From Candidatus Binatia bacterium (lineage in GTDB: Bacteria > Desulfobacterota > Binatia > UBA9968 > JAJDTQ01), in contig OY762897.2 of the NCBI GenBank assembly GCA_963666515.2, positions 992,001 through 1,056,000 of the forward strand: a DNA stretch of 64,000 nucleotides. Reading direction: 5' to 3'. Positions 53,489 to 56,702 of the stretch are shown piece by piece. The notes under the pieces were generated by a model. That model was not told the origin of the DNA. It searched no databases and saw only the letters and a program-made list of their open reading frames with translations. The position numbers and the translations under genes are program-made. How positions within the stretch are numbered: the stretch's first letter is position 1; the number at the start of each line of letters is the position of its first letter.

Positions 53489-54024
53489 CGGGTTGTCACA
53501 ACGGTCCGTATCCTTGCCAAGGAGTCTTGTTGCAATGTCTTGGAAACGCTTCTCGATACAGTCGTTGGCACTCGTCGGTATTGTGGTATCAGGATGTTCT
53601 GGCTCAGGCCCTGATCCATACCGCGGCCCCGTCGTCGGGATAACTCCACCGGGCCTGTCGGTGACTTGGCGGGACGGGTGCGCCGACGGCCGTGAGATCG
53701 ATACGCGTTTCTTCGAGTTCTCGGGTGGAAGACGGACCCGGACGTGGCCATCGGACAGCTCCCGGGTGTACAGGGTCGGGACATCTTCCCGCACGGTCCG
53801 GTTGGACTGCACTCCGGGTCGCACTGTCGCCTACGGCGCACGTCCTCGGGGTATGAGCCAGGGGCAGTACTGGGGACTGGGCTTGGCTGGCGACCAATCC
53901 TGCCCGGCCGGAGTTTCCTGTTCGGTCACGTGTCCGCAAGGGAGTGAAACCTGGAGCATTGGTGCGCTTGTCTGCACACAGCCCACGAACAACCGGCCGG
54001 AGGTGCGGCGGTCGATCCCGAACA

Positions 54025-55898
54025 CTAGAATCCTTGATCGACAGGATCTTGACTCAGGAAGACAAGATATTTGAACTGGACTTCGTTCGTACATGAATAC
54101 TATCGTAGGCCATCGCGAGTTGTAACGCTCGGTAGTTTAAGCGACGAGCTTCGCCTCATCGCAAATGGCATCGAGGTTCCTGGTGATGGCGGCAAAGCGC
54201 CGATGGGTCTTGGTATTGCCGCTCACGGCGTCGGGCGCAAGATGGGCCAGGCCGGGGCGAAGGATGCGGTTGTAGACACGCGTGTAGAACATCGCCACCT
54301 TGAGGCCGTGTTCGGTCAAGTGGTAGCGGTAGGCGCCGGGGATGCGCTCGATCAGGCCGTGCAGGCGCAGGCGTCTCAGGTCGTAACTCATTCGGCCCGG
54401 GCGCATTGGACTGGGATCGAGGCCCAGGAGTGCACCGAGGTGCCCGCGCAGGTCGCGGTTGGAGAAGCCGCGGGCCGAAAGAGTGAACAAGAGCAGGGCC
54501 TGCATCAGAGCCTGCACGCGCTCATCGGCGAAGCGCAGGGCCGAGGCGCGTTGTCCGTGGAACTCCAGGCCGCGTTGATGGCGTTGGAGTTCGTCTTCAC
54601 CCAGGGCACAGTCGTGGCTGATGGTTTCTATCTGCAACAGACGACGGTTGGCTGTGAAGCCGACCTGGCACAACGCCGCCAGGTTAGACAGCCGCCGGCC
54701 CAGGGCGAAGTCATAGGTGTCGTTGACGGTGGTCTCGGTGCGCAGCGCCTGCCCTTCCTTGTGGTACTGCTTGATGCGCGAGTGCTTGTAGTCCACGTGC
54801 AAGGAAGGGGTGACGCCTGCGGTGATGACCCGGGTACGGAACCGACCGGGGGTGCGCCGGGTGACCCGGCGCTGGAAGATCAACTGCACCTGGCTGGGGC
54901 GACCGAGATCGAGGTTCTCGCGGATCACGTCCTCGAAAAAGACGCGGCCCGAGGCCGGGCGGTCGAGCACCTGGGTCAGGCTGAACTCCGCTTGCAGGAT
55001 GGAGATGTCGTAGCGCAGACCGGCGCGACGGTCCTGAGGCGTATACGGATGCGGCAGGCGATCGAACCACTTGCGCGCCAGTCTGTCGATGAAAGCGGCA
55101 TCGAAGCCTTCGCAGATCTGTTGCAGCGCCTCGGGGTCTCCGCAGCAGCGCACGCCGTTGTCCAAAGCCTCGAACGGGATGCCGCGCTCGCGCAACTGGC
55201 ACTTGGCGTACTCGTTGCCGTTGAGGCACAGCTTGCCGTTGTACGGGAAGTAGGTGCAGAACTTGATGAAGAACGGCCCCGCCTGTTTGTCCACGCAATA
55301 GAAATACACATGGTTGACCATCGCGGTAGACGAGACCACCCACGGATAGGTGACCCCGGTGTCCGGGTTCCGGCGCCGCTCGGTGCGCATCACACGGGCC
55401 TTCTCCTGCGCTATCCCGATGTACAAAACCCCTTCGGTTCCCTTGAACCGCCCCAGGTACTCCTGCGTCACCTCGTCCTTGCGCTGGCCCTTCTTGAAGT
55501 GCACCACCTCGATCTGCTCCCGCTCCGCAAAGTCCTTCACCGCCTGCACGAACTCCCGACTCTTGGGCGCCAGCGCCACCGTCGACGCAAACCGCTGGCC
55601 ATGGTGCTTGTGCAGATACCCCACTACCCCGCCCACGCTCTGCAACTGCGGCACATACAGGTTCAAGTACAGGCGATCCACCGACTCGTATTCCAGCGTC
55701 ACGTGATCGCGCAATACTTCCGCTACGGTTTGTGGTAGGCTCATGTCCGGCTCCGGTTGCTTCGGGCTTTTATGCCCATTTGACCCTTTGAGGTCCGACC
55801 TTGCAAGGTCCCATGACCAGGGATTCAATCCCTGCTACAAGCGACCGGAGCCAATCCCCTTACCCCCTCGTCGGTCTGAGGCGAAGCCTCGCTAGAAT
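54025..55898 (-). mobile_element. Insertion element without TIRs, bounded by CTAGAAT at both junctions
   Basis: CTAGAAT at 54025-54031 and 55892-55898; clean gene interruption; single ORF; hairpinned ends. Confidence 0.85.
54137..55744 (-). CDS. Putative transposase of the element (535 aa; Rep_trans-like motifs plus C-terminal winged helix)
   Basis: VDRLYLN, YFY, ILQAEFS, HVDYKHSRIKQYHK, LRTETT; wHTH GFSNRDLR...MSYDLRRLRLHGLIERIP...RYHLT; GGAG RBS before the ATG at 55744. Confidence 0.75.
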   Translation of the reverse strand: MSLPQTVAEVLRDHVTLEYESVDRLYLNLYVPQLQSVGGVVGYLHKHHGQRFASTVALAPKSREFVQAVKDFAEREQIEVVHFKKGQRKDEVTQEYLGRFKGTEGVLYIGIAQEKARVMRTERRRNPDTGVTYPWVVSSTAMVNHVYFYCVDKQAGPFFIKFCTYFPYNGKLCLNGNEYAKCQLRERGIPFEALDNGVRCCGDPEALQQICEGFDAAFIDRLARKWFDRLPHPYTPQDRRAGLRYDISILQAEFSLTQVLDRPASGRVFFEDVIRENLDLGRPSQVQLIFQRRVTRRTPGRFRTRVITAGVTPSLHVDYKHSRIKQYHKEGQALRTETTVNDTYDFALGRRLSNLAALCQVGFTANRRLLQIETISHDCALGEDELQRHQRGLEFHGQRASALRFADERVQALMQALLLFTLSARGFSNRDLRGHLGALLGLDPSPMRPGRMSYDLRRLRLHGLIERIPGAYRYHLTEHGLKVAMFYTRVYNRILRPGLAHLAPDAVSGNTKTHRRFAAITRNLDAICDEAKLVA

Positions 55899-56702
55899 AG
55901 AGGAGAGGCAGACTGCGAGCCTGTCCGGTGTCTTCGTTGACCCCGACGGCGATACGCTCAGCATCTCGGCGACATCGAGCGCGATCGAATACGTGACCGT
56001 GAGCGTGTCGGGAGGTGAGGTCAGGTTTACCGGGAGAAAGGCCGGCTCCGCGACCATAACGGTGACCGCGCGGGACCCCGGCGGCCTGAGCGCCCAGGTT
56101 CGATTTGTCGTGACCGTCAGCACAAGCACAACACCGCCCCGGAACGGCGGCACTAACCTGTTCGCGAAGCATTGTATTCGGTTTGAAAGGAAAGGACAAG
56201 TCGGGTCTCTTAAGGATCCTGACAAGTACGGTTTCCGAAACATTTGCAATCGTAAGGTTATTGTAAACTGGTGTACAGTATCCGGCGCTTCAAGGCTGTG
56301 GCACCGCTGCGTTGGTGAGGGGTATGAGGCTGCGACGACTTTGGACCCTCATGAGATAGCATGGTCTTATAATCCCATTATTGGTGAAGATGATGAACGT
56401 CGTTATACTTACGGTGTCCATTATGCGGCATGTTACTGGCATCACCATGCGGTGGCGGCCGAATTCAATGGAGTTATTCCGACCAAGTACAGGTGCCGTT
56501 GAATGCGGTCTCAACACATGCTGGATTATTCCGCTCGCTCGCCGTGGCGTGGCGACTTTGCCCACACCGGTTGATTACGACATGAAGAGGGGAAAGTGAC
56601 AGATACCCCACCCTCAGGACGACGAGAGTCGTCGGAGCTTTGCTGCTGTAGCTTTCTGGACGCTGAGCGCCGTGCCCTTTTCATTGCAGTTTCACGCTAC
56701 TG

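Follow-up and report, generated by a model that had tools for sequence, protein, structure and literature searches.

The question raised by this locus is what has divided a host reading frame in two, and by what route it came to do so. The stretch analyzed, referred to here as the window, comprises 64,000 nucleotides of a Candidatus Binatia bacterium genome (assembly GCA_963666515.2, contig OY762897.2, positions 992,001 to 1,056,000). Within it, two copies of the word CTAGAAT, at 54025-54031 and 55892-55898, are separated by 1860 bp that carry a single open reading frame (ORF) of 535 codons plus stop. An earlier note on this DNA had proposed the segment as a candidate for a new class of transposon, without terminal inverted repeats, inserting at CTAG and moving by rolling circle under a tyrosine initiator akin to the Rep_trans proteins. 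When the segment is compared with its relatives, it can be assigned with high confidence to an autonomous insertion sequence (IS) of an unrecognized family, and the best explanation as a whole, which we regard as reasonably probable, is an autonomous IS that moves by strand exchange 3' of the trinucleotide CTA.

Removal of the inserted DNA in silico illustrates the disruption. Deleting positions 54032-55898 (1867 bp, the 1860 bp plus one copy of the repeat) yields a single open host frame of 380 codons that reads ...PNTRIEERQT... across the joint, as the earlier note had described. The host ORF lies on the plus strand, with its 5' part at 53493..54028 and its 3' part at 55896..56502, and its 3' half contains a Big_9 bacterial Ig-like domain. 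As the match to this domain begins at position 18 of the 89 in the profile, the host domain was evidently cut by the insertion. The element ORF (54137..55744, minus strand, start codon ATG at 55742-55744) is antisense to the interrupted gene; this orientation, together with the finding that most family members end in A and not G, led us to reject a group I intron or IStron. Read along the minus strand, the junctions run host ...TATT-CTA / GCGAGGCTTCGCCTCAGACCGACGAG ... ORF ... GATCAAGGATT-CTA / G-TGTTCG... host. The whole insertion sequence occupies 54026..55892 (1867 bp, minus strand), and is bounded by the first base of the left end (G, 55892) and the last A of the right-end CTA (54026). It is preceded by a CTA at 55893..55895, the target-derived half of a CTAG, and followed by the G at 54025 that completes a CTAG after the element's own terminal CTA.

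The element is multicopy and recently active, and its occurrence lies far outside what chance could produce. The source genome (4.67 Mb, two contigs) contains nine full copies that are 100% identical, have the same limits, and sit in different flanks, together with one short degenerate remnant; an exact-match search with the element core returned seven copies in one orientation and two in the other, and fuzzy searches of the genome returned exactly nine left ends and nine right ends. All nine copies have CTA before the left end and CTAG at both junctions, while the three bases before the left CTAG vary among them. The expectation that CTAG would be constant and its neighbors variable was therefore correct, and of the 7-bp repeat on which the earlier note relied the CTAG part survives; as ATT precedes the left CTAG in just two of the nine copies, the longer repeat is a coincidence of the window copy. 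Empty sites are also present. The copy at C1:943993-945863 of the source genome adjoins a conserved gene, and of the 27 congeners searched for this site 24 matched and five were fetched as loci; in all five the flanks are contiguous and free of the element, with a single CTAG in G436 and G008 and CTAC in G018, G009, and G434. The window's own insertion site has no orthologue among 30 relatives. In two public run assemblies, the depth of the element is ~176-204 and 373-395, compared with 13-17 and 28-40 for its flanks (~11-13 times the flank depth), and many different sequences continue from position 55895-55898. Two metagenome runs with a small share contain diverged relatives of the element and not the window flanks.

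If the element is autonomous, its only protein has to be considered first, and sequence libraries have little to say about it. No Pfam model reaches threshold for the 535-aa protein, the only sub-threshold match being to the winged-helix family AbiEi_4 (E 0.06). NCBIfam, which includes ISfinder families as modeled there, returns no family at E <= 1, and six distant members searched at E <= 0.1 give only weak winged-helix-type models, in two of the six. PHROGs and PADLOC hold no match, nor does a PDB sequence search with the single protein. The C-terminal 110 residues, by contrast with this silence, form a MarR/ArsR-type winged helix-turn-helix (~aa 425-500, 54245..54472), for which PDB profile searches give only MarR/MepR-type regulators, with a best E of 0.07 from an alignment of 27 members (A1) and 0.0073 from a wider alignment of 19 members reaching down to 21% identity (A7). 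Weak AbiEi_4 matches occur in 7 of the 27 family members, the distant homologue L104 scores 27.3 bits with HTH_5 (cut-off 22), and other distant members match winged-helix models only. The first ~400 residues match no known enzyme family by sequence in the libraries and profiles compared, and the N-terminal ~345 aa (54710..55744) have no fold recognizable by sequence. What these N-terminal regions do possess is a set of residues invariant in both alignments, namely, D23, R24, E114, Y147, Y149, G156, P167, N175, N196, Q251, E253, K325, Y327, K329, R335, and E337, to which L459 and G480 are added further along; no histidine, serine, or cysteine is invariant. A PD-(D/E)xK or GIY-YIG nuclease was considered for the N-terminal motifs and dropped, as the lysine of the "QEK" is not conserved and no Pfam model matches. 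Fused longer forms were not found in a search for longer homologues, itself weak evidence.

To place the protein among known enzymes, the two family alignments were compared by hhalign with sets of sequences from IS110 (19), HUH Y1 (15), HUH Y2 (11), and IS630 DDE_3 (11) transposases, and with 10 aligned Rep_trans sequences (a pT181 RepC fragment, staphylococcal relatives, and five proteobacterial Rep_trans genes); in the comparison sets, the long ORF closest to the middle of each locus was taken by an automatic rule and not checked individually. The probabilities obtained with A1 and A7, respectively, were 1.7% and 0.9% for IS110, aligned only over the winged helix (residues 434-533), 0.3% and 0.6% for HUH Y1, 0.1% and 0.0% for HUH Y2, and 0.1% and 0.1% for IS630 DDE_3. 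For Rep_trans the probability was 0.63%, with local runs giving 0.6% (A1) and 1.0% (A7). Positive controls gave 100% between close and distant members of the family itself, 99.8% between halves of the IS110 set, 100% between halves of the DDE_3 set, and 91% between proteobacterial and staphylococcal Rep_trans proteins of ~19% identity. The known superfamily link between Y1 and Y2, however, scored only 0.4%, and the tests therefore exclude membership of these families but not a shared fold. Taken with the library searches, these values agree with the earlier view that the protein carries no recognizable DDE, HUH, tyrosine, or serine recombinase signature and ends in a winged helix.

The kinship with Rep_trans proposed in the same note fares differently. 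The motif order on which it was based, Q251-x-E253, K325-x-Y327-x-K329, and R335-x-E337, is real and recalls the D-x-A-x-D, Y, and R-x-E of Rep_trans initiators and relaxases (pT181 RepC/RepD, MOBT), each motif lying on an apparent beta-strand and the central motif containing the tyrosine. Invariance of these motifs down to 21% identity indicates functional importance, not homology. The spacings differ (74 and 8 residues in the family and 62 and 14 in Rep_trans), hhalign leaves all three motifs unaligned, and the two groups of proteins differ in size and in the presence of the C-terminal winged helix. Pfam Rep_trans (PF02486) finds no match on the protein at E <= 1 and none in the whole genome at E <= 0.01.

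The protein is nevertheless far from rare. In a search of a set of 5.8 billion proteins, all 8000 scored candidates were significant, and among the 120 listed, none has a Pfam domain or a name beyond "hypothetical protein"; most lie on contigs of 1.7-3 kb, which is the signature of a collapsed repeat. An exhaustive search of 50%-identity representatives returned 10,355 proteins at E <= 1e-3 and 1,214 at E <= 1e-30. Cluster look-ups and RefSeq records again give "hypothetical protein," and 28 matching plasmid records, mostly from Rhodococcus, Burkholderia and relatives, and Mycobacterium, are annotated as hypothetical or uncharacterized protein and once as an ArsR regulator, some of them having no annotation there. 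A profile search found a homologue in 18 of 400 other genomes of the window's phylum, covering 16 of 255 genera including that of the source genome, a patchy distribution that speaks for horizontal mobility. Among contigs from one genome per species, 130 stretches encode close relatives, of which 80 were kept as loci for analysis; their hosts are Beta-, Alpha-, and Gammaproteobacteria, Acidobacteriota, Actinomycetes, Verrucomicrobiota, Chloroflexi, Gemmatimonadetes, Armatimonadetes, Myxococcota, and others. On comparison with Pfam, NCBIfam, PHROGs, PADLOC, and PDB, as distinct from ISfinder, this is apparently an unclassified IS family, and it is named in no library, annotation, or paper within reach, with subscription journals, supplements, and ISfinder lying outside the literature search. 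Passages in PMC6735867 on CTAG tetramers in Frankia are unrelated to the element. Standard libraries would thus fail to recognize a family with more than 10,000 homologue clusters among soil, water, and host-associated bacteria, and insertion sequences annotated as "hypothetical protein" are missed in counts of mobile DNA, in the diagnosis of assembly breaks, and in calls of gene disruption.

It could be argued that the ORF is a DNA-binding passenger or regulator and that the element is moved by a host or unlinked enzyme. The winged helix is, after all, the only recognizable domain, and the one distant homologue annotated as an ArsR regulator lies between cytochrome genes. On the other hand, elements from many phyla have conserved ends with this ORF as the sole gene between them, a region of ~400 aa retains its invariant D, E, Y, K, and R even where identity falls to 21%, and the patchy spread over unrelated hosts argues against dependence on a particular host enzyme. 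We therefore consider a passenger role very improbable, and return to the ORF as the presumed transposase of an autonomous element.

If the protein gives few clues to mechanism, the ends of the element give more. Across the family, the left end reads flank-CTA / ACGAGGC-nnn-GCCTCAGACCGnCGAG, with the junction as flank-CTA / A or G-CGAGG, and the right end begins directly after the stop codon with AAACTTGACTCAA, followed by ~22 nt, TCAAG, 5-6 nt, and CTA / G-flank. The left motif (26 nt, <=6 mismatches) is present in 67 of the 80 loci and the right motif (13 nt, <=2 mismatches) likewise in 67 of 80, many of the loci that miss one or the other being cut by contig ends. Among 71 distinct left junctions, 65 are CTA, five are CCA, and one is a deletion, and among 66 distinct right junctions, 64 are CTAG and two CTAA. 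As most relatives start with A and the window element starts with G, the unit found on both sides is CTA and not CTAG. The same limits are met in L013, a 1817-bp contig from an isolate that starts exactly with CTA-ACGAGG and ends exactly with ...CTAG, and among nine multicopy sets (two to five copies per assembly, 84-99.9% identical), the limits agree in the eight whose ends were examined.

In the window, the left-end block conserved across phyla occupies 55867..55892 on the minus strand and contains, 2 nt from the tip, a hairpin or palindrome of the form GAGGC-loop-GCCTC (55878..55890). Over 34 sequences this hairpin is paired in 170 of 170 cells, with compensatory changes in two of its five pairs and a loop that is free to vary. 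The right-end module (54026..54070, minus strand), 45 nt long with CTA as its last bases, is a diverged homologue of the family module AAACTTGAC...TCAAG-N5-6-CTA and has ~60 extra nt in front; the family module measures 44-45 nt in all 55 distinct versions. A CTTGA/TCAAG pairing within the right end is not kept in two verrucomicrobial elements. The left and right ends are unlike each other, and share no inverted repeat and at most the direct word C-R-A-G-G, which confirms for the window element, and extends to the family, the absence of terminal inverted repeats noted at the outset.

Several irregularities at these ends deserve mention in their own right. Of the five elements with CCA in place of CTA at the left junction, the four inspected (L014, L045, L053, and L080) come from different lineages and all have G as the first base. 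Very-short-patch repair acts at CTWG-type sites, and as the left junction of a G-first element (CTA+G) is itself a CTAG, a T-to-C change by such repair could explain why, among those inspected, CCA occurs only in G-first elements. In L014 (2820-2846 and 4655-4670), the 8-nt word GTGCGGTG occurs twice, once 7 nt ahead of the left end and once immediately behind the right CTA, a pattern that may reflect chance, a local repeat, or an aberrant event. In L048, L051, L056, L063, L066, L071, L073, and L075, and also L038, L043, L044, and L050, the left tip recurs in inverted form ~60 nt inside the element, such that these left ends, acidobacterial in type with some others, form a long palindrome with arms of ~24 bp. 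L029 (4590-4805) carries a tandem duplication of ~150 bp covering the 3' end of the ORF and the right module, the first copy of the module being truncated.

Perhaps the most compact view of what the ends can do comes from derivatives that lack the ORF. A right tip directly abutting a left tip was found on seven metagenome contigs, none of which encodes the protein. At four different sites on four contigs, two tandem 85-bp units are present, in each of which a 14-nt linker joins the left 26 nt to the right 45 nt, with a single CTA between the copies and CTA and CTAG as outer bounds; in one of these (L119), the dimer stands directly before another left end, and the contig stops before the length of that element becomes visible. 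Two further contigs carry 319-bp units at two sites, each followed by another left end. As the search required abutting ends, it gives no frequency for single units, and a fuzzy search of the source genome for both ends found no ORF-less derivative there. These derivatives retain in cis only the two short ends, the leader structure described below not being among the retained parts, which makes it probable that ends of 26 nt and 45 nt are all that is needed in cis. With one gene, two short and defined ends, natural mini-elements, and a 4-bp target that is very rare in GC-rich genomes, the element is a tractable one.

The tandem arrays could have arisen either by re-insertion into the right-end CTAG that each copy regenerates or by rolling-circle read-through. 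The second route would suit the proposal of a rolling-circle or single-strand transposon driven by an initiator related to Rep_trans (pT181 RepC/D, phage CRI), since head-to-tail multimers of mini-elements, and a tandem right end seen in L074, would fit failed termination, and since a cut site lying 2 nt from a hairpin is also found at plasmid origins. The first route explains the arrays equally without it, and the protein has neither a PF02486 match nor more than the 0.6-1.0% probability given above, against 91% between Rep_trans subgroups. We accordingly regard relationship to Rep_trans as unlikely, while noting that rolling-circle or single-strand transposition as such is compatible with the junction logic. 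The L074 arrangement is itself a tandem duplication of the 44-nt right module, in which the duplicated unit begins just after a CTA from the stop-codon context.

Junction sequences from many insertions also define the target. CTAG is rare in the source genome (66% G+C), with 1197 sites compared with 14,762 expected from base composition. In the 65 distinct left flanks that end in CTA, position -7 is A in 49 and G in one (background A 0.22, binomial p = 4e-20), and the mirror position +5 of the right flank is T in only 7 of 65. Orientation is therefore set by a non-palindromic target, A-N3-CTA/G, at which insertion is precise and orientation-specific. A at -7 of the left flank is also present in all four dimers of the 85-bp unit. 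In the source genome, only three of the nine copies have A at -7, and the preference may differ in the subfamily to which the window element belongs. Of 28 distinct right tips, 25 carry a purine at their own position -7, and the 5' part of the target thus resembles the right tip of the element itself. Of note here is a distant subfamily. In the AT-rich host G413, three copies of ~1.74 kb (L113, L117, and L118), 99.5% identical and with a protein matching at E ~6e-52, have different ends, with no CTAG and no inverted repeats. Their right tip is fixed, and their left boundary consists of ~25 nt that are homologous yet different in each copy and resemble the right tip, as if a repeated host motif were targeted. 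The rule that the left flank mimics the right tip seems to be general, this subfamily included.

The junction sequences fit a target duplication of TA, of CTA, or none at all, and this brings in another class of enzyme. CTAG with duplication of TA is the classic target of IS630, and a very divergent DDE transposase of RNase H fold, making 2-nt staggered cuts (C/TA/G) with TA duplication as in IS630/Tc1-mariner, would account for the preference for CTAG. The invariant acidic residues D23, E114, D152, E253, and E337 could form the required triad, and an IS630-type miniature element with inverted ends occupies CTAG next to the element in L073 and L074. IS630/Tc1-mariner elements, however, have terminal inverted repeats and a DDE_3 transposase, neither of which is present here. 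No subfamily shows such repeats, the terminal dinucleotides of the two ends differ, the choice of target is asymmetric relative to element orientation, and no DDE family is matched, with the hhalign probability of 0.1% already given. A divergent DDE enzyme thus seems doubtful to us, and strand exchange 3' of CTA remains the reading that we prefer. The miniature elements themselves are ~280 bp long with perfect terminal inverted repeats, follow directly on the right CTAG (L073:4621-4895 and L074:4665-4937), are bounded by CTAG, and have opposite orientations; each looks like an IS630/Tc1-type miniature inverted-repeat transposable element on the same rare target.

Between the left block and the ATG lies a third conserved feature, a structured 5' untranslated region (UTR; 55741..55863, minus strand) in which a long closing stem surrounds three hairpins to form a four-way junction. 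The 3' strand of the closing stem (..ACCGGAGCC) includes the GGAG ribosome-binding site (55751-55754, minus strand). Single minimum-free-energy folds recover the closing stem in 24 of 26 leaders from different phyla and with differing sequences, L020 and L050 folding otherwise. A covariance model built from a subgroup alignment of 12 proteobacterial leaders locates, in 36 of 66 sources, a sense-strand structure that extends to the start codon, including the window (34.1 bits, E 1.3e-07) and actinobacterial and verrucomicrobial elements; it also gives two weak antisense matches (19 bits) and misses most acidobacterial leaders. In an alignment fitted to this model, and hence leaning towards it, 90.8% of cells are paired, compared with 77.5% in shuffles and <=49.5% when partners are slid, and 26 of 32 pairs show changes on both sides, compared with 12.9 in shuffles, a value that none of 500 shuffles attained. 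A pair that is U-G in 32 of 38 sequences assigns the structure to the sense strand. From a MAFFT alignment of the 26 leaders together, which is a poor alignment, RNAalifold returned no pairs, and Rfam gives no family match to the leader, its only two sub-threshold matches being chance ones inside the ORF. A simple scan for sigma-70 promoters was negative for both the element and L076.

The simplest reading, and the most likely one given where the closing stem lies, is that the leader structure controls translation of the transposase, although it may also serve as an RNA that binds protein or acts in trans. The conserved leader is, in either case, a candidate for a new structured RNA in its own right. 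Bridge or seek RNAs serve IS110/IS1111 elements as guides, and it can be asked whether the leader acts likewise as a trans cofactor or guide for an RNA-assisted recombinase. The two systems have in common the absence of inverted repeats, a short core on both sides that is shared by donor and target, and a structured noncoding region beside the transposase gene, here a multistem structure of ~100 nt directly upstream of the ORF that is conserved across phyla with strong covariation; as mini-elements have no leader structure, any need for it would have to be met in trans. Unlike the DEDD transposases of IS110/IS1111, the protein matches neither DEDD_Tnp_IS110 nor Transposase_20, and its hhalign similarity is confined to the winged-helix region. 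Inspection by eye, with no formal search, revealed no guide-like complementarity, that is, no UTR segment complementary or identical to the tips and changing along with them from one subfamily to another. The target measures only 4-8 nt, Rfam is silent, and the overlap of the closing stem with the ribosome-binding site is enough to explain conservation as translational control. An RNA-assisted recombinase is on this evidence improbable, and translational control is retained below.

Taken together, these observations allow a mechanism to be proposed for strand exchange 3' of CTA. The 535-aa protein would act as the transposase, its winged helix reading the repeated C-R-A-G words of the ends and its N-terminal domains cutting 3' of CTA in the donor left flank, in the right tip, and in the target, at all three of which the protein would recognize one short sequence, R/A-N3-CTA. 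Joining would leave CTA on both sides and restore CTAG at the donor, with the excised form having a junction with one CTA, and exit and entry would occur by sequence-specific strand exchange via a circular or single-stranded intermediate, following the logic of IS200/IS605, IS91, and IS110 rather than that of DDE cut-and-paste at inverted ends. By conservation, Y327 of K-x-Y-x-K, accompanied by R335 and E337, would be the best candidate for a covalent nucleophile, and D23, E114, and E253 are candidate metal ligands; the chemistry could depend on this tyrosine or on a metal-activated water, and the intermediate could be single or double stranded. The 5' UTR structure would throttle translation of the transposase.

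Known transposases of prokaryotes fall into a handful of catalytic classes, and it is conceivable that a catalytic mechanism is missing from the catalogue. That this transposase represents a new class can be advanced tentatively, with somewhat less than an even chance in our view. The same caution applies to the fuller proposal of a class distinct from HUH, DDE, DEDD, serine, and classical tyrosine enzymes that cuts 3' of R/A-N3-CTA with the K-x-Y327-x-K / R335-x-E337 hairpin as a tyrosine active site and D23, E114, and E253 as metal ligands, is aimed by the winged helix, and has its synthesis or activity tied to the leader RNA, which is possible rather than probable. Were the mechanism to be as proposed, the element could become a small, site-restricted insertion tool.

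A number of points weigh against the mechanism or parts of it. The junctions fit equally a 2-bp TA duplication from staggered C/TA/G cuts, as in IS630. Compensatory changes in the left-end palindrome are equally expected if a symmetric dimer binds double-stranded DNA, and CTTGA/TCAAG in the right end, instead of forming a hairpin, may be two sites at which protein binds. The putative catalytic residues were chosen by their conservation only. The public runs, which were available as contigs only, yielded no circle junction and no empty-site joint or excision product. Six of the nine genome copies are co-directional with replication (origin ~3.75 Mb and terminus ~1.4 Mb by GC skew), and this lack of orientation bias speaks against a strict lagging-strand mechanism like that of IS608, nine being a small number. 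Finally, the family may already have a name in ISfinder.

How the element relates to established systems without inverted repeats is best seen with two of them. Like IS200/IS605 elements, which use the HUH Y1 enzyme TnpA in "peel and paste" transposition, it has unlike ends, with a hairpin near the left tip and possibly one near the right, would insert directly 3' of a short specific sequence and be excised precisely at the sequence level, and gives rise to short ORF-less derivatives. Its protein, by contrast, has no HUH motif, no invariant histidine in 19 sequences, and no Y1_Tnp match, is ~4 times larger, and ends in a winged helix, and the nine copies show no replication-strand bias. With IS91/ISCR elements and Helitrons, which move by rolling circle with HUH Y2 enzymes, it shares a tetranucleotide target, an end that mimics the target, and head-to-tail multimers of its derivatives that are compatible with read-through; it differs in having no Y2_Tnp or HUH signature and no helicase, and no copies with captured flanking DNA were seen.

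Some minor observations from the source genome and the public runs may be added. The degenerate remnant, outside the window at G000:C1:2645461-2645643 (G000 being the source genome), consists of two adjoining 92-nt pieces, 90-92% identical to the element, that correspond to the inside of the ORF and to its start together with the leader, as expected of an old, internally deleted copy; a similar fragment is present in a congener (G016:C208:52810-52885). In four runs, summed contig depth peaks over the left tip (55828-55924, up to 1603) and again over the segment encoding the K-x-Y-x-K / R-x-E region (54761-54857, up to 1864), which suggests that many other family members or mini-elements share these parts. 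To the left of the copy at G000:C1:943993, a repeat of ~370 bp (L008:1098-1470) recurs on several congener contigs at 80-93% identity and is probably another mobile element. Lastly, cumulative GC skew on G000:C1 rises by ~+1.2 within 200 kb after its minimum, at ~3.8-4.0 Mb, far more steeply than elsewhere, and this stretch may be an inversion, an island, or a near-origin feature of the assembly.

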